58,631 bases of DNA. It comes from Ilumatobacteraceae bacterium (lineage in GTDB: Bacteria > Actinomycetota > Acidimicrobiia > Acidimicrobiales > Ilumatobacteraceae). Below, in pieces: positions 5,099 through 58,531 of this stretch. The translations under genes were made by a program, and so were the position numbers. Each line of letters opens with the position of its first letter. Within the stretch, counting starts at the first letter, position 1. The notes below the pieces were generated by a model. It did not search any database, had not been told where the DNA came from, and worked only from the letters and a program-made list of their open reading frames with translations. Where the stretch lies: assembly GCA_040401695.1 (NCBI GenBank), contig JBBANY010000002.1:1-58631 (forward strand). The letters run 5' to 3'.

Positions 5099-5608
5099 AT
5101 GGGCGTCACAGGGGTCAACCACACGGGAATCAGTGTCACCGACATGGAGCGCTCCCTCGGCTTTTACCGCGACGTGCTCGGTCTCGAACTCGTGATGGAC
5201 ATGGACGTCGAGAGGCACGCAGGCCTCGACACCGTCGTCGGGATGACCGACACGATCGGGCGGGTCGTCATGTTGGCGGCCGGCGACAGCCTTGTGGAGT
5301 TGTGGTGCTACGCGAATCCCGCTGGTCGGCCTCTTCCTGCCGACTACAAGCCCGCCGATCGTGGCGTGACGCACGTCGCGCTCGAGGTCAACGATGTCGA
5401 TGCGATGCACACGCGCGTGGTAGCGGCGGGCTTCCGCGCGACGTCAGCACCGGTTGATCTCGGCATTCACAAGACCTGTTACGTGCACGGCCCCGACGAT
5501 GAGATCGTCGAGCTCCTCGAAGACAGATCGGACCGGGAGATGCTTGCGAGGGTGACTCGCCGCACGATCGAACGGCGCCTCGCCGCCGAGGGCAAGAAGG
5601 GTTCGTGA
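5099..5608 (+). CDS. VOC-family (glyoxalase/bleomycin-resistance/dioxygenase fold) protein
   Basis: MGVTGVNHTGISVTDMERSLGFYRDVLGLEL... is a typical VOC N-terminus. ATG at 5099 follows AGAGGGGGG. The upstream part of track ORF 4901..5608 overlaps the TetR gene. Confidence 0.8.
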   Translation: MGVTGVNHTGISVTDMERSLGFYRDVLGLELVMDMDVERHAGLDTVVGMTDTIGRVVMLAAGDSLVELWCYANPAGRPLPADYKPADRGVTHVALEVNDVDAMHTRVVAAGFRATSAPVDLGIHKTCYVHGPDDEIVELLEDRSDREMLARVTRRTIERRLAAEGKKGS

Positions 5609-5643
5609 CCCTTTGCGGACACGAAAATCGAAAGGAATCGCAG

Positions 5644-7215
5644 ATGCCGAATCAATCAATCAAGGGCCTGACGGTCACGGGACTCATGCGCCAGGCGGCG
5701 CGGTACAACGCGAAGCGCGTCGCGGTGAAGCATGGCGACCGCACTCTCACCTTCGCTGAAGCGTGGGAACGTGGCACACGCATGGCAAACGGGCTCCTTT
5801 CGCTTGGGTTGAAGCCCGGTGACCGCGTGGGTGTGCTCGAAGACAACTCGATCGATGCGCAGGACTTCTTCCTCGGTGCGGCCATTGCGGGTTTGGTGCG
5901 CGTACCCCTTTACGCACGCAATGCGATCGAGAGCCATGAGCACATGCTTGGTCACACGGGGTGTCGGGCCATCGTCGTTGCCGACAAATACCGCAGCGAC
6001 ATGGATGGCATGACGACGAAGCTCGCCGACCTGCAGCACGTCGTGGTTCGCGACGCGGGCTACGAGAAATGGCTCGGTTCTTTCTCGGCCGACGATCCGA
6101 TGGTCGAGATCCAACCCGATGACTGGTACATCATCCGCCACACGGGCGGTACGACAGGAAAGCCAAAGGGCGTCGCGTACAGCCACCGTTCGTGGTTGGC
6201 GGCCGGCCGCGACTGGTTCTACAACTTCCCGCCGATGGATGCGGGCGAGGTGTGCATGCACGTCGGGCCCATCTCGCACGGAAGCGGCTATCTCTACACG
6301 CCCACGTGGCTGTCGGGCGGAACCAACTTGCTGCTCGACCACTTCGACGCCAAAGAGACGTTGCAGCTGATGGCCAGTGAACGGGTGTCGTTCATGTTCA
6401 TGGTTCCTGCGATGCTGAACGCTGTCGCGCGTGATCCACTTGCACGTGAGCTCGACTTTTCAGCGCTGAAGGTCATCCAAATCGGCGGTGCGCCGATTGC
6501 CGACGACACGGCCCTCTTGGCGCGCGAGGTGTTCGGCGACGTGCTGTACCAGGGCTACGGACAGACCGAGGCGTTGCCTGTGTGCATGATGGGTCCGAAG
6601 GAATGGTTCTCCGACGTGCCCGGTTCGAATCCACTGCGCTCGGCAGGTCGCGCACTGCCATTCGCCTATCTCGAAATCAGGGACCCGGAGGACTCGTCGG
6701 TCTCGCTGCCAATCGGTGACGAAGGCGAGATTGCCATCCGTTGCGATGGACAGATGCTTGGCTTCTGGGAAAACGAGGCCGCCACGAAGGAGCGCATGTC
6801 TGGTGATGGCTTTGTTCTCACCGGCGACATCGGCAAGCTCGACGAAAACGGGTACCTCTACGTTCTCGATCGCAAAGACGACATGATCATCTCCGGGGGC
6901 TTCAACATTTGGCCCGCCGAACTGGAGAATGCGATTCTTGGGCACCCCGAAGTCATCGAAGTCGCGGTCTTCGCGATTCCGCACGAGCGTTGGGGCGAGA
7001 GTCCGGCTGCGATGTGCGTGACCTCGGCGGGGGCGAAGGTTTCGGCCGACGACATCAAAGACCTGTGTGCCCGCGTTCTTGGCTCGTACAAGAAGCCTGC
7101 GGAGGTGTTCTTCCAGACCGACCCCCTGCCGAAGAGCCCGGTAGGCAAGGTTCAGCGCAAAGTGCTGCGTGAACCCTTTTGGGCGGGTCAAGAACGCCGC
7201 GTCGCCGGCAACTAG
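5644..7215 (+). CDS. AMP-dependent acyl-CoA synthetase/ligase (FadD-like)
   Basis: AMP-binding signature IIRHTGGTTGKPKGV, plus later YGQTE and GDIG..DENGYLYVLDRKDD motifs. ATG at 5644 follows AAAGGAA. Confidence 0.85.
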   Translation: MPNQSIKGLTVTGLMRQAARYNAKRVAVKHGDRTLTFAEAWERGTRMANGLLSLGLKPGDRVGVLEDNSIDAQDFFLGAAIAGLVRVPLYARNAIESHEHMLGHTGCRAIVVADKYRSDMDGMTTKLADLQHVVVRDAGYEKWLGSFSADDPMVEIQPDDWYIIRHTGGTTGKPKGVAYSHRSWLAAGRDWFYNFPPMDAGEVCMHVGPISHGSGYLYTPTWLSGGTNLLLDHFDAKETLQLMASERVSFMFMVPAMLNAVARDPLARELDFSALKVIQIGGAPIADDTALLAREVFGDVLYQGYGQTEALPVCMMGPKEWFSDVPGSNPLRSAGRALPFAYLEIRDPEDSSVSLPIGDEGEIAIRCDGQMLGFWENEAATKERMSGDGFVLTGDIGKLDENGYLYVLDRKDDMIISGGFNIWPAELENAILGHPEVIEVAVFAIPHERWGESPAAMCVTSAGAKVSADDIKDLCARVLGSYKKPAEVFFQTDPLPKSPVGKVQRKVLREPFWAGQERRVAGN

Positions 7216-7318: not shown

Positions 7319-7864
7319 ATGGGTCTTAATTTGGCAACAATGGAAAAAATCACTGCGGACGTTCAGATGAACGATCTGGAGTGGGTGGAAGTGGCGCCGG
7401 GCTCCTACTTCAAGGTTCTCACGGTTCACGCTCCGACCAACACCGTGGCCTTCGGCTTCAAGATGGATGCAGGCGCGCCGGACTTCCCGTCGCACTTCCA
7501 CATCTGCCGCGCGATGGCATGGACCGTCAAGGGTTGGTTCGGATACCGTGAGGCTGAGAAGCCCGAGGAGAGCCGGATCATGAAGGGCATGTTCTCCTAC
7601 GAGGCTGCTGGTTCATTCCACACGCCGTTCAGCGACTGCCCGGAGGGCTTCGAGTCGGTCGGAATCTTCGAGAGCGACAATGAAGTCCTTCTCCAGAACC
7701 ACGCCGAGCCCGACCCGCGCTCCGAGCGCATCGGCGACCTCACGGTCAGCGACTTCATCTCGTGGGGTAGCAAGTCGACCCACATCGTGCACAAGGACGG
7801 CACCATCACCGGTGACCCGACCTACAAGTACGACTTCACGAGCGGTATCAACGCCTTCAGCTGA
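7319..7864 (+). CDS. cupin-domain protein (2,4'-dihydroxyacetophenone dioxygenase-like / ChrR-cupin-like)
   Basis: 181 aa with a cupin metal motif pattern (PSHFHICRAMAWTVKGWFGYRE ... GSFHTPF). RBS GGGGGGA precedes the ATG. Confidence 0.6.
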   Translation: MGLNLATMEKITADVQMNDLEWVEVAPGSYFKVLTVHAPTNTVAFGFKMDAGAPDFPSHFHICRAMAWTVKGWFGYREAEKPEESRIMKGMFSYEAAGSFHTPFSDCPEGFESVGIFESDNEVLLQNHAEPDPRSERIGDLTVSDFISWGSKSTHIVHKDGTITGDPTYKYDFTSGINAFS

Positions 7865-7888
7865 GGCGTCACAACCGAAATCTTCAAA

Positions 7889-7920
7889 AGAGGGGGAGGC
7901 GGGTAACCGCCTCCCCCTCT
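7889..7920. terminator. bidirectional intrinsic terminator hairpin between convergent genes
   Basis: Perfect 14-bp stem AGAGGGGGAGGCGG / CCGCCTCCCCCTCT with loop GTAA. It has a T-run on the minus-strand side (TTTTG) and a weaker one on the plus side. Confidence 0.65.
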
Positions 7921-7958
7921 TCGCTTGTCCCGGTTCTTTTCACTTGGCTTGGTTTGCG

Positions 7959-8711
7959 TCAGACGATCGACCAACCACCGTCGACCGGATAGGTCATGCC
8001 GGTGATGAAGTCCGCTTCGGGCGAGCACAGGTATGCAGCCATCGCGCCGATGTCACGCGGACTACCGAGACGTTTGATCGCGTGCGCCGCAGCAAACTGG
8101 TCGAGCATGTCGGGAGTGATGTCCTGGAGTATCGGAGTGTTGATCGTGCCGGGGGCGATGGCGTTAACGGTCACGCCGGTGCCTGCGTACTCCACCGCCG
8201 CCTGACGGGTCATTCCGGTGACACCGGCTTTGGCAGCGCTGTAAGAAAAGAGATTCGGTAGACCGCGTAGTGCCGCAAGTGATGCGATGTTCAGCACCCG
8301 ACCGAATCCGCCACGGATCATCACGGGCAGGACCGTCTTCATCCCGTACCAAACCGATGTGAGGTCGTGAGCGATCATTCGGTCCCATTGAGATTGCTCG
8401 AGGTCGACTGCAGTATCGGCCGTTGTCGCGACTACTCCTGCGATGTTTCCGAGGACGTCGATCTTTCCGTGATTTTCGTCGATTCGGCGTATCTCGGTCT
8501 TCCATTGGTTGAGATCAGTGACGTCCACCGTTGCGCGCTCGGCCGTGCCGCCCGCCGCTTTGATTGCCGCGACGGTGTCGTTGCAGTCCTTCAAGTCGAG
8601 GCATACGACGTGTGCACCTTCGGAACCCAGGCGCTCGGCGACGCCTCTGCCGATTCCCTGATGTGCACCAGTGATAACGGCCACCATGCCGCTGAAACGT
8701 TTCGTTGTCAT
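7959..8711 (-). CDS. SDR-family oxidoreductase (3-oxoacyl-ACP reductase-like)
   Basis: VAVITGAHQGIGRG Rossmann motif and YSAAKAG catalytic motif. 250 aa. Confidence 0.85.
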   Translation of the reverse strand: MTTKRFSGMVAVITGAHQGIGRGVAERLGSEGAHVVCLDLKDCNDTVAAIKAAGGTAERATVDVTDLNQWKTEIRRIDENHGKIDVLGNIAGVVATTADTAVDLEQSQWDRMIAHDLTSVWYGMKTVLPVMIRGGFGRVLNIASLAALRGLPNLFSYSAAKAGVTGMTRQAAVEYAGTGVTVNAIAPGTINTPILQDITPDMLDQFAAAHAIKRLGSPRDIGAMAAYLCSPEADFITGMTYPVDGGWSIV

Positions 8712-8770
8712 GAGTTTCCTTTGTGTCGAAACTGTGAGTTTGTTTTTCTCATCTGATGTCGGAAATGAAT

Positions 8771-8803
8771 AAGGGCGGGGCCGACCAAGTCGACCCCGCC
8801 CTT
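8771..8803 (-). terminator. hairpin downstream of the binding-protein gene (likely terminator)
   Basis: 10-bp outer stem AAGGGCGGGG / CCCCGCCCTT with an inner 4-bp stem. It lies 14 nt after the stop of the minus-strand gene ending at 8817. Confidence 0.55.
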
Positions 8804-8816
8804 ACAGGTAGGTGAT

Positions 8817-9923
8817 TTAGTTGAACAGGGTGAACGAACCCGGGCCGGTGGCGAAGCCGCTGGCAGGAACGTTCTTGTTCGTCACGAGTGGGCTGTCCAT
8901 CCAGTAGGTGGTCGCATCGGGCGTCTCGCCGGCGATCAGCTTGGCGAGGAGTTCACAACCGAGAGAGGCCGTGCCCTCGAGGTCGTTTGCTGCCGTTGCA
9001 GCGAAGCTCTTGCCTGCGCGGATCATGTCGAGTGCCGACGAGTCTCCGTTGAACGACACAACGAATGCCTTGTTGCCAAGACCATCGACTGCTGCCGCTG
9101 CACCCTGGCCGAGGCTGTCGAAGCTCGCGTAGACGGCCTTGATGTCGGGGTTCGCCTGGAAGGCCTGCTCGACCTTTGCCTGGGCGTCGGCCACCGCGTT
9201 GGCGAGGTCGACTTCAACCTCGGTCACCTTGATGTCCGGGTACTCGCTGCCCTCGCCGGTCATTGCCTTGAAGGCATCGGCGCGCTGACGGAGGCTCGGT
9301 GTCACGCGTGCGTTGACGATGAGAACATCGCCTGCTGCGGTTCCACCGTTCTCCGCTGCGATGCGGTCGATCACGTACTGTCCGACGCGGGCTGCGCTCT
9401 GGAATTCGAGACCCGTGATCGAGTACGAACCGGTGCGCTGTCCACCCCACACGGTGACAACCGGGCGACCTGCATCGCCGGCTGCCTTCAGAGCGGCATC
9501 AAGCGAGCCGTTGCCGATGTCGTTCGCAACGTTGTAAATGGCATCGACGCCGGCGTTGTTCGCCTGCTCGAAGGCCTGGACGGCCTCGGTGCCACCCTTG
9601 GCATCGAAAACCTGTGTGGATCCACCGTTGGCCTCGACACACTCGACGACTCCGGCCTGGAGGCGATCGACGGGCTCGAGACCCGGTGCGAGCGAGATGA
9701 TGCCAACTGCCTTGCCGCTGAGGGCCGAGAGGTCGGCTCCGGCGGGTGCGGCTTCTTCCGCTGCAACCGTGTCTTCGGTGGCTGCTTCTTCAGCGGTTGT
9801 TTCTTCGGCAACCGCCGTCGTGTCGGCAGTTGCGGTATCCGTGCTGTCGCTGTCGTCCCCACAGGCTGCGAGAGCGCCTGCGGTGGCGAGAACGACCGCA
9901 AGCGCAACGGCCTTGCTTTTCAT
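8817..9923 (-). CDS. sugar ABC transporter substrate-binding lipoprotein (PBP1/RbsB-like), copy 1
   Basis: ATG at 9923 (MKSKAVALAVVLATAGALAACGDD...) gives a lipoprotein signal peptide with a lipobox Cys, preceded by GGGGGAA. An acidic Thr/Ala-rich tether of about 40 aa follows, then a periplasmic binding fold. The track ORF extends 60 codons further upstream without support. Confidence 0.8.
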   Translation of the reverse strand: MKSKAVALAVVLATAGALAACGDDSDSTDTATADTTAVAEETTAEEAATEDTVAAEEAAPAGADLSALSGKAVGIISLAPGLEPVDRLQAGVVECVEANGGSTQVFDAKGGTEAVQAFEQANNAGVDAIYNVANDIGNGSLDAALKAAGDAGRPVVTVWGGQRTGSYSITGLEFQSAARVGQYVIDRIAAENGGTAAGDVLIVNARVTPSLRQRADAFKAMTGEGSEYPDIKVTEVEVDLANAVADAQAKVEQAFQANPDIKAVYASFDSLGQGAAAAVDGLGNKAFVVSFNGDSSALDMIRAGKSFAATAANDLEGTASLGCELLAKLIAGETPDATTYWMDSPLVTNKNVPASGFATGPGSFTLFN

Positions 9924-39347: not shown

Positions 39348-39995
39348 TCAGCAGGTGACGCCGGGGATGCAGAGCTTCGGAAGGGTCACGGGCGAGGTGA
39401 GCTTCGTCAGGTCGGTGCCGGAGAGGTTCGAAGCGAGGCTCGGCGTGCCGGTGATCTTCGGGATGTTGCTCCAGTTCGCGGTGTTCGTCGCGGTCGTCGA
39501 CGCGGCAGGCTGTTGTGCGGCGGTTGCTGCTTGATCGGCGGCGGGCTGATCGACCGCGGGCTGTTCGGCGGGAACCGAGACAACCGAGGTCTCGCTCGTC
39601 GCGGGTGCCGGGGCGACCGCAACATCCTGCGTCGGGCTCGGCTCTGCGACCGTCGGTGCGGCCGGGGCAGTGTCCTGACTGGTCGAAGCCGGCTTCTTCT
39701 TCGTCGCCTTGGCCACCTTCTTCGTGGTTTGCGTCGTGGACTCAACTTTCGTTGCGACGACCGGTGCAGGCTGTGCTTCGGTGGCGACGATTTCGTCAGT
39801 CGCGGGGATCGCCTCGGCCGCGAGGTTCTGGAGAACATCTGCGACATTCGCAACCTGGGCCGGGGTGACGACTTTGTCGCCGGCCTTTCCGTCGCAGGCC
39901 ACGAGGCCCGCGGAGAGGAAGAGGGCGGCGGCGGTGGTGCCGGCGGCGATTGCGATGCGCTTCAGGTTCTTGTTGTTGATCCGGTTCGTGTTCAT
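39348..39995 (-). CDS. low-complexity secreted lipoprotein, function unknown
   Basis: ATG at 39995 is preceded by AAGGAGAAAA. It has a signal peptide with a lipobox (ALFLSAGLVACDG), an Ala/Pro/Thr/Gln-rich body, and a C-terminus ...LPKLCIPGVTC with two Cys. Confidence 0.65.
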   Translation of the reverse strand: MNTNRINNKNLKRIAIAAGTTAAALFLSAGLVACDGKAGDKVVTPAQVANVADVLQNLAAEAIPATDEIVATEAQPAPVVATKVESTTQTTKKVAKATKKKPASTSQDTAPAAPTVAEPSPTQDVAVAPAPATSETSVVSVPAEQPAVDQPAADQAATAAQQPAASTTATNTANWSNIPKITGTPSLASNLSGTDLTKLTSPVTLPKLCIPGVTC

Positions 39996-40141
39996 TGTTT
40001 TCTCCTTGTGTGGTGGGCCCCTTGTGGGCTTCGTTGCCGTACAGAGCCGCGACCCCCGCTGGCGCGGACACTTTTCTCCTGACTTTTTTGGAAATCCCTG
40101 AAACCCATGCAGCGCAACGGTTTCCGGGTGCATGCCGGTCC

Positions 40142-54040: not shown

Positions 54041-54310
54041 TCAGGCGAGCTTCAGGAACATCTTCTGGACGTCGTCGATCGAATAGCCCTCGCGGCGTGA
54101 GCGTTCGGGGTTGCCGACGCACCAGGTGAGCCCGGCTGCCACGAGGTTGAACCCGACCTGCTCGAGAGCCTTACCCGCCGCGGAGATCTGATTGACGACT
54201 TCGCGGCAGTCGCGTTCCTCTTCGAGCATTTGCTGGATTCCACGCACCTGGCCTTCGATGCGGCGAAGTCGCTTTTGCAGGTCGGCGATGGTGTCCTGTG
54301 GAATTTCCAT
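54041..54310 (-). CDS. CsoR/RcnR-family (DUF156) metal- or thiol-sensing transcriptional repressor
   Basis: ATG at 54310 gives 89 aa: LQKRLRRIEGQVRGIQQMLEEERDCREVVNQISAAGKAL... It has Cys35 and Cys64 but Gly at the position of the CsoR His ligand. Confidence 0.85.
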   Translation of the reverse strand: MEIPQDTIADLQKRLRRIEGQVRGIQQMLEEERDCREVVNQISAAGKALEQVGFNLVAAGLTWCVGNPERSRREGYSIDDVQKMFLKLA

Positions 54311-54321
54311 GTCGACACCAT

Positions 54322-54337
54322 ATACCCCTGGGGGTAT
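54322..54337. promoter_or_regulatory. CsoR-type operator ATACCCC-TG-GGGGTAT
   Basis: Perfect 7-bp GC-tract inverted repeat, 12 nt upstream of the repressor start codon. It has the same architecture as described CsoR operators (ATACCCC...GGGGTAT). Confidence 0.65.
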
Positions 54338-54350
54338 GCAAAACAAGACC

Positions 54351-55031
54351 TCAGGGGGTCTTTGCCGGCAGCGGCAGATGGTCGCGCAACAGGGCAAAGC
54401 GCAGCCCCGCCCGCGAGGCCTCGCGCATGACCACCTCGAGGCTCGCCGGCAACGAATCGAGGTAGTGCAGCAACACGATGTCGCCACGACGCAGCCCGGT
54501 TCCGCCGTCGGCGCGGATGATGCGTCCGCCATCGGCCATCACGTTCCACAACACGATCCGCGACAGACCACATGACTTCGCCGCACGCACGGTGTCGGAG
54601 TTCCAACCGCCACCAGGAGGGCGAAAGAACGCCGGGCGTCGGCGAATGACACGCTCGACCTCGCGGTTGCCCGCGCAGATTTCGGCTCGTTGATCCTTGT
54701 AGTTCATCGCGCTGACAATGCGGTGGGTCTGGCTGTGGTTCTCGAACGTCATTCCGGTCTGGCGCAGCAGGTTCACGAACCGGCGTCTGTGGCGGTTGAT
54801 TTGTTCGGGCAGCGCGAAGGTCGTGATCGGTATCCGGAGGTTGCGGATGTACTGGTTTGTCTCGCGCGACAGATGCGAGCCGTCGTCGACGGTGAGAAAC
54901 ACGACGGGTTCCTTCGTGGCCACATGGTCGATCACGTAGCCATCAGTCCGACCGGCGGCGTGCGCGGCGACGGGGGCAACCCCGAGAACGAACAGGCCGA
55001 CGGCCACACAACCCATTACTCGTCGACCCAT
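54351..55031 (-). CDS. secreted polysaccharide deacetylase (NodB homology domain) family protein
   Basis: Signal peptide MGCVAVGLFVLGVAPVAAHA. FLTVDDG (Asp-Asp metal/catalytic motif), HSQTH and RPPGG motifs. Confidence 0.8.
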   Translation of the reverse strand: MGRRVMGCVAVGLFVLGVAPVAAHAAGRTDGYVIDHVATKEPVVFLTVDDGSHLSRETNQYIRNLRIPITTFALPEQINRHRRRFVNLLRQTGMTFENHSQTHRIVSAMNYKDQRAEICAGNREVERVIRRRPAFFRPPGGGWNSDTVRAAKSCGLSRIVLWNVMADGGRIIRADGGTGLRRGDIVLLHYLDSLPASLEVVMREASRAGLRFALLRDHLPLPAKTP

Positions 55032-55086: not shown

Positions 55087-55128
55087 AAAGTGTCCGCCAA
55101 ACGCACCCGCGTGACTCTGTTCGGCATG
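55087..55128 (+). promoter_or_regulatory. promoter-like motif AAAGTGTCCGCC-N16-CTCTGT-N2-GGCATG upstream of the sigma-fusion gene
   Basis: It shares 24 nt at identical spacing with the site at 56807..56848, and ends 45 nt upstream of the sigma start codon. Confidence 0.5.
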
Positions 55129-55172
55129 CGTCGAAGACGGTCACGAGGCAGCAGGGGGGCCGACGGAGCGAG

Positions 55173-56783
55173 ATGGTGGAACAAAACGAACACAGTGCGA
55201 TCGTCGAAGGACTGCGCGCGGGTACCAACGAGGGTCTCGCCGCGTTCTACGACCTGTACGCCGACAAGCTCTACGACTTTGCCCGTCGCCAGTTGCGTGA
55301 CGCAGCGCTCGCTGCCGATGTCGTGCACGACACGGTGCTCATCGTGAAGAGCCGCATCGGCCAACTTCGCGACGAGTCGAAGTTCCGCGCCTGGGTGTAT
55401 GCCATCGTGCGCAATGAAGTACGCGCGAAGGCCCGTGCAAGGTCGCGGCACGTGCGCGAGGAGTACGCCCCCGAGCAATCGGTCGACCCCGACTTCGCCG
55501 GTGACCACGATCGCCGCGAACTCGCCTCGCTCATCAACGAAGCTGTCGCAGGCCTGACCGAACGCGAGCAAGAGGTGTTCCACCTCTTTGCCCGACAGGG
55601 GCTGTCGAACGACGAAATCGCGGCCAGCCTGGAACTGACCTTCGCCAACGCGCAAAAGCTGGTGCAGCGCGTGCGCGACCGCATCGCCCGCTCGGCCGGC
55701 GCCCTTCTTGTCGCCCGTCAAGGCCGCAAGGACTGCAGTGATCTGAACGTTCTTCTCGTCGACTGGGACGGCACGTTCTCGCCGCTGTGGCGCAAACGCA
55801 TCGCCCGCCACGTCGACGAATGCAGCGCATGTGAACGCAAGCGCGCCGTTCTACTGCAGCCCGGTGGCGCCGTCATGGCCGCGCCGTACTTCGCGGCACC
55901 CGAGTCGCTGCGCTCGCGCATCTTCGACTCCATCGCCGCCGGTGTCGACCTCGGCCTCAGTGCGATGCCCAAACCGCCGTTCCTGCGCCGGCCCGCGGTG
56001 CTGTCGTCGGTGGCGGGCATCGCCTTCGTTGCAATCGTCGGGGTGGTGGCGAACAACGGAACGCAGGCGCCGCGGTTCGTCGAGTCGTCGTCCACGTCGT
56101 CTTCGCCGGCGAGCACCGTCGACTCGACTGCTTCCGCTGACGCTGCAGCAACTGTCTCGTCGACGGTCCCGCCGTCGCCTGACTCCACTGTCTCGTCAAC
56201 GGTCCCGCCGGCGCCTGACACCACTGTCTCGTCGACTGCACCTGTCGCGCCGGCGACCACCGTCGACTCGACTGCGCCTGTCGCGCCGGCGGTGACCGTC
56301 GACTCGACTGCTTCCGCTGACGCTGCAGCAACTGTCTCGTCGACGGTCCCGCCGTCGCCTGAGGCCACCATCTCGTCGACGGTGCCGCCGGCGCCTGAGA
56401 CCACCATCGCGCCGGTGGTGGCGCCGGCGTCGCAGGCGTCCTCGACCGTTGCCCCGGTGGCGACAACCACGACGGCAAAGCCGGGGTCGAATTCGCCGTC
56501 CAAGTTCGGTGTTCCACAGTGTTCGGGTTTCGGCAACACGAAGCTGAAGGCCTTCACCCTGAAGATCCCGGTGACCGACCCCCAAGGCGTGGCCTCGGTG
56601 CGGATGCGGTTGACCACCGCGGCCGTGTGGCACGCCGCGGCGTTCCAGACCTCGGTGTGGTCGGCAAGCGTCGACAAGGTCGACATCGCGGCAACCAAGG
56701 CCACGGTCGCCGTCGAGGCCACCGACAAAGACGGTGCGGTGACCTCCACGCAGGTGGCCGTCTACGCCTCCACCTGCCCCTAG
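55173..56783 (+). CDS. ECF sigma factor fused to a zinc-finger (HxxxCxxC) anti-sigma motif, one TM helix and an extracytoplasmic Ser/Thr/Pro-rich repeat plus C-terminal domain
   Basis: ATG at 55173. Sigma region 2 (AFYDLYADKLYDFARRQLRDAALAADVVHDTVLIV) and region 4 HTH (LTEREQEVFHLFARQGLSNDEIAASL) are followed by KDCSDL...HVDECSACE and the TM AVLSSVAGIAFVAIVGVVA. The rest is an S/T/P/A repeat region and a two-Cys terminal domain of about 110 aa. The upstream part of track ORF 54690.. is unsupported. Confidence 0.8.
   Translation: MVEQNEHSAIVEGLRAGTNEGLAAFYDLYADKLYDFARRQLRDAALAADVVHDTVLIVKSRIGQLRDESKFRAWVYAIVRNEVRAKARARSRHVREEYAPEQSVDPDFAGDHDRRELASLINEAVAGLTEREQEVFHLFARQGLSNDEIAASLELTFANAQKLVQRVRDRIARSAGALLVARQGRKDCSDLNVLLVDWDGTFSPLWRKRIARHVDECSACERKRAVLLQPGGAVMAAPYFAAPESLRSRIFDSIAAGVDLGLSAMPKPPFLRRPAVLSSVAGIAFVAIVGVVANNGTQAPRFVESSSTSSSPASTVDSTASADAAATVSSTVPPSPDSTVSSTVPPAPDTTVSSTAPVAPATTVDSTAPVAPAVTVDSTASADAAATVSSTVPPSPEATISSTVPPAPETTIAPVVAPASQASSTVAPVATTTTAKPGSNSPSKFGVPQCSGFGNTKLKAFTLKIPVTDPQGVASVRMRLTTAAVWHAAAFQTSVWSASVDKVDIAATKATVAVEATDKDGAVTSTQVAVYASTCP
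56115..56405 (+). repeat. in-frame tandem duplication (180-bp period) within the extracytoplasmic linker of the sigma fusion
   Basis: 56115..56182 is identical to 56295..56362 (68 bp), and the next 45 bp or so are about 85% identical. The sub-repeat ACCGTCGACTCGACTGC occurs at 56115, 56259 and 56295. Confidence 0.85.
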
Positions 56784-56806: not shown

Positions 56807-56848
56807 AAAGTGTCCGCCCCGCGGGGGTTGGCGGCTCTGTAGGGCATG
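56807..56848 (+). promoter_or_regulatory. promoter-like motif AAAGTGTCCGCC-N16-CTCTGT-N2-GGCATG ending in the RCC1-gene start codon
   Basis: Same motif and spacing as 55087..55128. Here the terminal ATG is the start codon at 56846, which implies a leaderless transcript. Confidence 0.5.
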
Positions 56849-58531
56849 AAGCTCACATCGGCACTTGCCACCACAATCCTTGCCGCCTCAATTGCGGGAG
56901 GCCTGTCCATCGCCCAACCCGTTGCCGCGGCAACCTCAAGTCCCGTCGTGGCCCTGGCGGCAGGCGACGAACACACATGTGCCCTGTACGCCGACGGGGC
57001 GGTGCAGTGCTGGGGCGGCAACGACTTCGGTCAGTTGGGCAACCCCGACGTGGAGTCGTCGGCCGTGCCCGTGCGGGTGCAGTTGCCCGCAGACGCCGAG
57101 GCCATTGCGGTCGACACCGGTGCGTTCCACACGTGTGCGGTGACGCGCGACCACCGCGTCTACTGCTGGGGCTACAACGGATGGGGATCGATTGGCAACG
57201 GTACGTACACGAGCACGATCATTCCAGTCCTCGTCACCCTCGCGCCCTCGGCGGCCGTCGTCAGCGACGTGGCTGCAGGCGGGTTCACCACCTGTGTGTT
57301 GTTGTCGAACGGCACCGCACAGTGCTGGGGTCGCAATCAGTACGGCGAGGTGGGTGACGCCACGCGCACGATGCGCAACACCCCGACACCCGTCACCGGC
57401 GTCACCGATGCGCTCGACATCGATGCGGGAACGAACCACGTGTGCGTTCTGCGCAGCGTGGGCCGCGCGCAGTGTTGGGGTCGCGCCGCCGATGGCCGCA
57501 CCGGGGATCCGACCTTCGCCGACGTCGCAGAGATCAGCGCGGGCGGTGCCCACACCTGCATGCGCACCACCGTCGGCGGTCTGCGGTGCTGGGGTCTCAA
57601 CAACTACGGCCAACTCACGCCGAACAACATCGATGCAGGAATCGTTCGTGTCTCGGCCGGCGGTGCGCACACCTGTGTCGCAACGGATGGTGGCATCGTG
57701 CGCTGTTGGGGTGATGCGAGCTTTGGCCAACTGGGACTCGCGAACGTCGTCGTCGAAGGACGTTCGGTTCTCGAAGCGGTCGCCGGTACCCGCCACACCT
57801 GTGCCCGCCTCGACGACTCGTCGGTGTGGTGTTGGGGCGACAGCGTCGCTGGCCAGGCGGGCGACCATTCACTCACGCTCTCGGCAAGCCCCGTGAACCT
57901 GATCGTCGGTGTGCCACCCGCACCGCCGAGCCCCGAGCCGTCACCGGTCGATCCCGAGCCGATGCCGTCGCAGCCGGAGACTCCTGCGCCGGTCGAGCCC
58001 GCACCGTCGACACCCGACACCGTCATTGAGACGCCCGTTGAAGCACCCGTCCGGGTCGACCCGGTCGCGCCGCAGCCCGTCGAGAAGCAGGTCGCCGGCA
58101 CGCCATCGGAATCGGTGACGCTCGAAGCACCCGCAGTGACGCCGCCCGTCACAGCGAGCCCGCTCGCCATCGCCAAGCGCGGGGTATTGGAACTGCGCCT
58201 CGGTCGTGAGGCGAACCTGGTGCGCATCGCCCGCGCTGCAGGCGTGCGCCTGCCGGGGTCGTTGATCGCAGGTTCCCTCAGTCGTGCACGCAGCGTGAGC
58301 GCTCACCCGTTCACCCGGTTGCGCGTCGAGATGAAGGTCAGCCACCCGCGCAACTGCCGCAACGTGTTGACACCCGTGCTGGGCGCTGCCGTGCGTGCGA
58401 CGCGCGTGGGGGAGTGCCGTGTGACGCTGCGCATCTCGCGTGCCGGACGCCCCGACATCCTCCGCACGGTGCTCGTGCAAACCGTTGCAGCGGTGGTGCC
58501 CGTCAACAACCCGGCTCGCAACACGCGCTGA
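56846..58531 (+). CDS. secreted RCC1-repeat (beta-propeller) protein with Pro-rich linker and basic C-terminal domain
   Basis: Signal peptide (ILAASIAGGLSIAQPVAAA). About 7 repeats carry the H/T-xC-A/V...V-xCWG-xN-xxGQLG pattern. A PxP-rich linker (PPAPPSPEPSPVDPEPMPSQPETPAPVEPAPSTP) follows, then an Arg-rich domain of about 150 aa. Confidence 0.8.
   Translation: MKLTSALATTILAASIAGGLSIAQPVAAATSSPVVALAAGDEHTCALYADGAVQCWGGNDFGQLGNPDVESSAVPVRVQLPADAEAIAVDTGAFHTCAVTRDHRVYCWGYNGWGSIGNGTYTSTIIPVLVTLAPSAAVVSDVAAGGFTTCVLLSNGTAQCWGRNQYGEVGDATRTMRNTPTPVTGVTDALDIDAGTNHVCVLRSVGRAQCWGRAADGRTGDPTFADVAEISAGGAHTCMRTTVGGLRCWGLNNYGQLTPNNIDAGIVRVSAGGAHTCVATDGGIVRCWGDASFGQLGLANVVVEGRSVLEAVAGTRHTCARLDDSSVWCWGDSVAGQAGDHSLTLSASPVNLIVGVPPAPPSPEPSPVDPEPMPSQPETPAPVEPAPSTPDTVIETPVEAPVRVDPVAPQPVEKQVAGTPSESVTLEAPAVTPPVTASPLAIAKRGVLELRLGREANLVRIARAAGVRLPGSLIAGSLSRARSVSAHPFTRLRVEMKVSHPRNCRNVLTPVLGAAVRATRVGECRVTLRISRAGRPDILRTVLVQTVAAVVPVNNPARNTR

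Follow-up and report, generated by a model that had tools for sequence, protein, structure and literature searches.

How an extracytoplasmic function (ECF) sigma factor is controlled when its inhibitor belongs to the same polypeptide chain is the question raised by a gene of an Ilumatobacteraceae bacterium (Actinomycetota, Acidimicrobiia). Sigma factors and their membrane anti-sigma factors are normally separate, co-transcribed proteins. In the stretch of DNA analysed here (positions 1 to 58,631 of contig JBBANY010000002.1, assembly GCA_040401695.1; the window hereafter), a single open reading frame (ORF), 55173..56783 on the forward strand, joins an ECF sigma factor, a segment of the zinc-binding anti-sigma (ZAS) type, a transmembrane (TM) helix and an extracytoplasmic immunoglobulin (Ig)-like domain. 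The interpretation that is considered rather probable is that of a one-polypeptide ECF sigma/anti-sigma signalling protein, self-inhibited, membrane-anchored, released by regulated proteolysis and provided with promoters of its own.

The first step is to establish that the fusion is genuine, since the original prediction had described sigma and anti-sigma factor in one chain without a stop and had asked that a frameshift merging two genes be excluded. The frame is open over its 536 codons with no internal stop, its GC content at third codon positions (GC3) is 0.71-0.94 in each 150-nt block over the whole ORF, and both alternative frames are interrupted by stops at the sigma/anti-sigma junction. 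Moreover, the database search returned 256 homologues, of which more than 100, from independent assemblies, carry the identical continuous fused ORF; in 119 of the 120 listed homologues, in which the motif was checked, the spacing from region 4 to the first Cys of the anti-sigma segment is fixed. The fused ORF is also present in isolate genomes (for example Mycolicibacterium sp. P9-64, Aeromicrobium stalagmiti and Actinophytocola oryzae). The frame continuity, the recurrence in independent assemblies and the isolate genomes all speak against an artefact in which a sequencing or assembly error joined an ordinary sigma gene and an anti-sigma gene; no evidence supporting such an event was found, and its probability is regarded as negligible. 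The covalent joining seen in the original prediction is genuine and not a frameshift product. As for the start of the gene, the ATG at 55173 is preferred because it is the first in-frame start past the predicted transcription start and is preceded by GGAG, 8-11 nt upstream. A longer ORF from TTG 54690 was rejected, as it overlaps the divergent deacetylase gene and starts 5' of the conserved promoter. Another ORF of the window, 5605..7215, likewise of 536 aa, encodes an acyl-CoA synthetase, and the equal length is coincidental.

Profile matches identify the N-terminal 176 residues as an ECF sigma factor. The region 2 and the region 4 helix-turn-helix that had been noticed by eye are both recovered by the hidden Markov models (HMMs) of Pfam, Sigma70_r2 with 33.5 bits (cutoff 24) and Sigma70_r4_2 with 27.7 bits (cutoff 25.7). 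The Pfam Sigma70_ECF model also matches above its gathering score, and the NCBIfam model TIGR02937 (sigma70-ECF) covers residues 22-172 with an E-value of 2.9e-21 and 75.8 bits against a cutoff of 42.9. The linker between regions 2 and 4 is short (about 28 aa), and regions 1 and 3 are absent, as in ECF (group 4) sigma factors.

The segment that follows region 4 is, judging by motif and profile comparisons, homologous to ZAS anti-sigma domains but divergent. Its predicted zinc ligands, C188, H213, C217 and C220 (nt 55734-55832), are arranged as C188-x24-H213-x3-C217-x2-C220, which agrees with the ZAS signature H/C-x23-26-H-x3-C-x2-C; the Cys followed by H-x3-C-x2-C had been correctly recognised, with the His lying 25 and not about 28 residues past the first Cys. 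The C-x24-H-x3-C-x2-C pattern is kept, at the same distance from region 4, in the same 119 of 120 homologues (33-98% identity). Searched against the Protein Data Bank (PDB), the family profile of the segment finds a single match, RsiW (5wuq_C, E 8.7e-4), in an alignment spanning H-x3-C-x2-C plus helices 3-4. The HMM searches that had been proposed as a check give support of unequal kinds: NCBIfam TIGR03988 (antisig_RsrA) matches the segment with an E-value of 4.8e-6 and 26.6 bits, under its equivalog cutoff of 62.5, and the Pfam zf-HC2 model matches in relatives only. Among 30 homologous segments, TIGR03988 matches all 30, the generic anti-sigma model NF052375 matches 25 and zf-HC2 matches 12; in four distant homologues scanned whole, zf-HC2 gave no match.

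The cytoplasmic part was modelled with AlphaFold2 (residues 1-301, 114 sequences; predicted template modelling score, pTM, 0.71), and ten-residue blocks over residues 11-90 and 121-220 average 86-94 in predicted local distance difference test (pLDDT). In the model, the final helix of region 4 (157-183) continues into the linker to the anti-sigma domain, where helices are predicted at 189-197, 204-216, 218-227 and 244-255, the topology of class I anti-sigma domains; the pLDDT of this segment is about 86-93 except in the loop between helices III and IV (231-240, mean 60), and some 20 low-confidence residues separate the domain from the TM helix. In Foldseek comparisons the modelled sigma factor superposes best on sigma factors bound to their anti-sigma factors (SigW in 5wuq, TMt 0.73; CnrH/CnrY in 4cxf, 0.77; RpoE/NepR in 5uxx, 0.72) and poorly on those in RNA polymerase (RNAP) holoenzyme (TMt 0.34-0.44, root mean square deviation about 27 A). 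For this reason, sigma2 and sigma4 are, as modelled, in a compact, inhibited arrangement, closest to that of SigW/RsiW. The structure prediction that had been suggested thus returns both a four-helix ZAS segment and a compact sigma core, and the one would be expected to pack on the other in cis.

The same comparison bears on the possibility that the extension acts chiefly as a positive or stabilising (pro-sigma) element, a role that parts of the ECF41 and ECF42 extensions and FecR-type N-domains reportedly have. The predicted sigma2/sigma4 arrangement fits inhibited complexes and not the holoenzyme, and the anti-sigma domains to which the segment is related are genuine inhibitors, both of which tell against it; on the other side, a Streptomyces coelicolor mutant without only the sigma domain of the fused protein SCO4117 is weaker in phenotype than the whole-gene deletion (PMC5826349), and cytosolic fragments of the Pseudomonas putida hybrid IutY depend on the rest of their system for stability (PMC5411451). 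A positive role of this kind is held to be quite unlikely.

Beyond the anti-sigma domain, the one hydrophobic helix of the original prediction is located at residues 275-293. K267, R272 and R273 flank it on its N-side, and an N-in/C-out topology is predicted on that basis; a hydrophobic segment stands at the equivalent position in all 110 homologues checked. The S/T/P/A-rich tandem repeats that follow were also correctly described, in a linker of about 145 aa (15% Pro) instead of about 180. The linker contains nine 12-aa (36-nt) tandem repeats of the TVSSTVPPAPDT type at residues 315-422 (nt 56115-56438, forward strand), and Tandem Repeats Finder (TRF) reports a period of 36 nt at 56154-56429, with seven copies at 56154-56405. 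Even homologues with about 90% or higher identity elsewhere (453-552 aa in length) differ in copy number, as would be expected of a spacer.

The chain ends in a domain for which two Cys had been pointed out, rightly, and a length of about 110 residues, of which the structured part is some 95 (441-536). It is predicted by AlphaFold2 as an eight-strand beta-sandwich, has no Pfam match, and gives in Foldseek generic Ig/PKD/CBM-like matches only (best E 7.8e-3). C450 and C535 are invariant in 85 sequences, and an ATD..G motif is invariant or nearly so. Cys pairs outside the cytoplasm usually form disulfides, and C450 and C535 would be expected to do the same. Proteins ending in Cys account for 89 of 110 in the Acidimicrobiia, Nocardioides and Aeromicrobium branches and for only 1 of 118 in the mycobacterial branch, which has an S/T/P tail without the Ig-like domain; in some relatives an additional BACON/Ig-type domain is inserted. 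The Ig-like domain is likely to be a signal-input module outside the cell.

One way in which such a module might act is by ligand binding to the Ig-like domain, relayed through the TM helix so as to loosen the cis-inhibition with no cleavage at all. The fact that no protease is linked to the locus would agree with it; against it, about 145 flexible linker residues of variable copy number lie between the sensor domain and the membrane, and the anti-sigma domain is in turn set apart from the helix by the 20 or so low-confidence residues. These two stretches make mechanical coupling unlikely, and conformational signalling is accordingly given a distinctly low probability.

A further line of evidence comes from the promoter regions. 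The 33-nt motif AAGTGTCC-N18-RCTCTGT occurs in three exact copies in the window and in none of 100 shuffles: 53 nt 5' of the ATG of the sigma gene, 5 nt 5' of the ATG of the RCC1-repeat gene that follows it, and 5' of a lipoprotein gene about 15 kb away. The copy of the sigma gene is kept before the orthologous sigma genes in loci L001, L003-L005 and L007-L016, and that of the RCC1 gene before its orthologues in L001, L005, L008 and L010-L016, plus L141 and L161. The lipoprotein copy precedes lipoprotein homologues in metagenome contigs L104 and L195, where not only the motif but also the 5' untranslated region (5'UTR; ..CAAGGGGCCC..AAGGAGAAAACAATG) is conserved, and L017 has the motif before a gene that shares the 5'UTR of the lipoprotein gene and adjoins the sigma gene. 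For the sigma and RCC1 copies, 24 further sites were found in 16 related loci (L001, L003-L016), which makes 27 in 17 sources with the three of the window; the consensus across related loci is aaAAaGTGTCC.C-N14-tG.CTCTgT, and conservation at orthologous positions extends to 18 loci. Since three exact copies stand before gene starts and are conserved at orthologous positions, AAGTGTCC-N18-RCTCTGT is probably the sigma factor's own promoter motif. The motif is absent upstream of the distant relatives L019-L080, and neither a sigma70-type promoter nor an intrinsic terminator was found around the sigma gene. A motif scan of metagenomes returned mostly chance matches in low-GC contigs, only L104, L141, L161 and L195 being informative. 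In that scan, three unrelated high-GC metagenome contigs (L137 at 8031, L157 at 1237 on the reverse strand, L182 at 373) turned out to share a nearly identical sequence of about 47 nt, AAGTGTCCTCGGGCGAYGGAGGTTGGACTCTGTCYCGTCAGGG, whose match to the promoter pattern is due to chance; it may belong to a conserved RNA or to an element of another kind.

The conserved promoter predicts autoregulation and a small envelope regulon of three genes, a pattern typical of ECF sigma factors that control their own gene along with a few envelope genes. The RCC1 protein, predicted to be secreted, comprises seven RCC1 repeats together with a Pro-rich linker; about 130 aa at its C-terminus have no assigned family. 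Its gene lies directly 3' of the sigma gene in 10 related loci, the pair being kept down to about 48% sigma identity, and its mRNA is probably leaderless, because the ATG stands 5 nt past the -10 element. The lipoprotein ends in LCIPGVTC and has no Pfam family matches. In the sigma promoter itself, (T)TCGGCATG follows the -10 element at 55121-55131 of the window, with GGCATG conserved in the sigma promoters of close relatives; the ATG at 55126 is out of frame and opens a 73-codon ORF overlapping the sigma start, a possible leaderless upstream ORF if transcription of the sigma gene starts at this ATG.

The Cys-His-Cys-Cys (CHCC) site and the regulon have to be considered together in judging another mechanism, a thiol/zinc redox switch like that of RsrA, the partner of SigR in Streptomyces, in which oxidation or zinc loss would unfold the anti-sigma domain and RNAP would be recruited to a membrane-tethered sigma factor without proteolysis. 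The ligand pattern is that of RsrA, the RsrA model TIGR03988 is the best NCBIfam match to the segment, and the first Cys of RsrA is a redox sensor (PMC5358783). The membrane-bound RsiW, with the same CHCC pattern, is nevertheless insensitive to oxidation (PMC5358783), and it is RsiW that the family profile matches as the only PDB sequence. In addition, the invariant TM helix and the conserved extracytoplasmic domain suggest a signal from outside, and the predicted regulon consists of envelope or secreted proteins and not of thiol-redox genes. RsrA also differs in being soluble and separate, whereas the protein described here is membrane-anchored with an outside domain and reaches only 26.6 of the 62.5 bits of the RsrA model. 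An RsrA-like switch is therefore judged unlikely. A related scheme, in which the protein would stay in the membrane and the CHCC site and the Ig-like domain would form a two-input switch, with the Ig-like domain sensing a regulon product (the RCC1 propeller or the lipoprotein), is considered very unlikely; if true, the system would close a feedback loop of its own at the cell surface, the sigma factor being transcriptionally active while tethered to the membrane.

The mechanism that is preferred is self-inhibition followed by proteolytic release. It starts from what is directly supported, namely the domain identities and their conservation, the predicted fold and the conservation of the promoter, and from these we infer the binding of zinc, inhibition in cis, release by proteolysis and the signal. 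From the last helix of region 4, the chain would pass directly into the CHCC class I anti-sigma domain, which would pack against the sigma domains of the same chain and keep them in a compact arrangement incompetent for RNAP. The single TM helix would anchor the protein N-in/C-out, with the flexible, repeat-rich S/T/P/A linker presenting the Ig-like domain, with its expected disulfide, to the exterior. Release would follow the examples of RsiW and IutY: an envelope signal would lead to site-1 trimming of the extracytoplasmic part, after which a site-2 protease (S2P) would cut within the membrane and cytoplasmic proteases would remove the anti-sigma segment to free the sigma factor. The latter would then transcribe from AAGTGTCC-N18-RCTCTGT its own gene, in positive feedback, the RCC1-repeat gene and the lipoprotein gene. 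Proteolytic release is the best supported reading because RsiW is removed by regulated intramembrane proteolysis (RIP), the release of IutY has been shown, and a review assigns this mechanism to the fused groups ECF48, ECF52 and ECF53.

Several points weigh against this mechanism. No protease gene is linked to the locus, and a rough search of the window for HExxH revealed no ORF resembling an S2P. The continuous helix from region 4 to the anti-sigma domain would, in the model, leave no evident stopping point for a protease, which is a weak point, and the contacts of the anti-sigma domain with sigma2 and sigma4 in cis are suggested by the model and by homology only. The Pfam zf-HC2 model matches neither the protein nor the isolated segment even at E<=10, and the TIGR03988 score of the segment is far under the curated cutoff. 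Finally, the processing of SCO4117, the only relative of this class to have been studied, has been proposed without demonstration (PMC5826349).

Table 1. Features of the fused sigma/anti-sigma gene and of its predicted regulon in the window
Feature	Position (nt)	Strand	Basis
Coding sequence, 536-aa fused ECF sigma / ZAS anti-sigma / TM / Ig-like protein	55173..56783	+	translation, GC3, full-length homologues
Sigma region 2, residues 26-92	55248..55448	+	Pfam PF04542, E 3.6e-8, above gathering score
Sigma region 4 helix-turn-helix, residues 121-170	55533..55682	+	Pfam PF08281, E 2.1e-6, above gathering score
ZAS-type class I anti-sigma domain, residues 184-255	55722..55937	+	invariant motif, profile matches, AlphaFold2 model
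Single TM helix, residues 275-293, N-in/C-out	55995..56051	+	Kyte-Doolittle mean 2.49, K/R on N-side
Extracytoplasmic S/T/P/A-rich linker, residues 294-440	56052..56492	+	composition, repeat register, TRF
C-terminal Ig-like beta-sandwich, residues 441-536	56493..56780	+	AlphaFold2 pLDDT 86, all-beta fold
Putative ECF-type promoter of sigma gene, AAGTGTCC-N18-ACTCTGT	55088..55120	+	exact motif copy, conserved in relatives
Second promoter-motif copy, before RCC1-repeat gene	56808..56840	+	exact motif copy, conserved in relatives
Third promoter-motif copy, before lipoprotein gene	40041..40073	-	exact motif copy, recurs in L104, L195
Predicted regulon member, secreted 561-aa RCC1-repeat (beta-propeller) protein	56846..58531	+	Pfam RCC1_2 E 6.9e-58, WD40_RLD E 1e-58
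Predicted regulon member, 215-aa A/P/T-rich lipoprotein	39348..39995	-	signal peptide with lipobox L-V-A-C

The surroundings of the gene agree with the statement of the original prediction that no separate anti-sigma gene is adjacent: none was found nearby, in the window or in the relatives' loci examined, and the neighbours are a deacetylase gene on the opposite strand and the RCC1 gene. On the 5' side (54041-55031, opposite strand), genes for a polysaccharide deacetylase and a CsoR-type metal-sensing repressor are found, and the order CsoR-deacetylase-sigma is kept in the closest relatives L003, L005, L008, L009, L015 and L016. In the distant relative P0093 (L002, a 704-kb contig), a sortase gene and a 190-aa ORF follow the fused sigma gene at 7687-8929 instead of the RCC1 gene, so that different branches of the family have different downstream partners.

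The family to which the protein belongs is large. With E<=1e-30, a profile of the full-length family matches 2,532 representative clusters formed at 50% identity; of the 150 best matches, most align with the profile over nearly its whole length. Among the GTDB species-representative genomes, 462 loci encode a relative, some of them in isolates of Mycolicibacterium, Mycobacterium, Nocardioides, Aeromicrobium and Actinophytocola. All relatives belong to the Actinomycetota. The closest of them (up to 98% identity) come from metagenome-assembled genomes (MAGs) of freshwater Actinomycetota/Acidimicrobiia, Ilumatobacteraceae among them. Many relatives are found in Mycobacterium and Mycolicibacterium, a homologue from the latter being 44% identical over the sigma and ZAS parts. 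Some nearly identical copies of the locus (L005-L008, L016 and L072) are titled 'uncultured Bifidobacterium sp.', 'Acidobacteria bacterium' or 'uncultured Burkholderiales bacterium' in public records; on an Acidimicrobiia-type locus, these MAG titles are probably taxonomic mislabels.

Groups of fused sigma factors named ECF48, ECF52 and ECF53 have been defined, reportedly by Huang et al. 2015, Pinto & Mascher 2016 and Casas-Pastor et al. 2021. Whether the architecture had already been classified was left open by the original prediction, and it has been: these three groups are actinobacterial fusions of a sigma factor, a zinc finger (probably ZAS) and one or two TM helices, for which activation through regulated proteolysis is expected (PMC8999054). 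The protein described here resembles them in its actinobacterial host and in the order of ECF core, zinc finger, TM helix and long extracytoplasmic tail. ECF48 is the likeliest of these groups, and a probable assignment matched by the group description only: the C-terminal extension has 360 aa (below about 400), with a zinc motif, one TM helix and no separate anti-sigma factor, and Mycolicibacterium, the genus of the cited exemplar WP_048473130.1 from Mycolicibacterium chlorophenolicum (PMC8999054), holds many relatives. The exemplar is not among the mycobacterial homologues listed, and the clade described here differs from its mycobacterial relatives by the conserved terminal Ig-like domain with its Cys pair. 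Another candidate is ECF287, an actinobacterial group whose extension is rich in Cys.

ECF52, defined by an ECF sigma factor with zinc finger, TM helices, Pro-rich extension and carbohydrate-binding domain (PMC5826349), was rejected: there is no match to PF13490 at E<=10 and no carbohydrate-binding module, and the linker is S/T/P/A-rich (15% Pro). Its member SCO4117 of S. coelicolor is the only studied protein of the fused groups (PMC5826349) and shares the succession of sigma factor, zinc finger, TM helix, low-complexity extracytoplasmic linker and terminal binding-type domain; an autoregulatory promoter and proteolytic release have been proposed for it too (PMC5826349). It differs in its PF13490 zinc finger, its Pro-rich linker and its NPCBM-type carbohydrate-binding end (PMC5826349), in place of which the present protein has a segment without PF13490 match, an S/T/P/A linker with 12-aa repeats and a generic Ig-like end. 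The promoter motifs differ as well (CSGYN-17-SRHA for SCO4117, AAGTGTCC-N18-RCTCTGT here).

Among separate sigma/anti-sigma pairs, SigW-RsiW of Bacillus subtilis (PDB 5WUQ/5WUR) provides the best structural match of the sigma core and the only PDB match of the anti-sigma segment, with a CHCC zinc motif, a single TM helix and, as far as the model goes, a four-helix anti-sigma domain and a compact sigma2-sigma4 arrangement in common. RsiW is a single-pass CHCC ZAS protein destroyed by RIP through PrsW, RasP and ClpXP (PMC5358783). SigW and RsiW are two Firmicutes proteins, whereas here the anti-sigma domain sits on the C-terminus of region 4 in one chain. IutY of P. putida, an ECF243 hybrid, also combines ECF sigma factor, TM segment and extracytoplasmic anti-sigma region in a single polypeptide, and experiments have demonstrated that Prc and RseP release its sigma domain (PMC5411451). 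IutY is FecR-type, without a ZAS zinc motif, proteobacterial and coupled to a TonB-dependent receptor, and represents an independent origin of the same idea; an ECF243 assignment was rejected, as the present protein has no FecR domain, its gene is flanked by those of the deacetylase and the RCC1 protein, and its host is of a Gram-positive lineage.

The architecture is thus not new, the protein being an uncharacterised member of a catalogued design, and no current view is overturned by it. What is new is modest: a widespread, uncharacterised subfamily with a conserved Ig-like domain as its likely sensor and, in freshwater Acidimicrobiia, a promoter and a three-gene regulon whose prediction is well supported. 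The fused groups, while catalogued, are almost entirely unstudied, experiments having been made only on SCO4117 and on the unrelated IutY, and the clade described here is large and common in abundant freshwater Acidimicrobiia. With its predicted promoter and three-gene regulon, the locus would lend itself as a compact test system in which to ask how a ZAS domain that belongs to the same chain is removed or inactivated, and what role secreted RCC1-repeat proteins have in bacteria.

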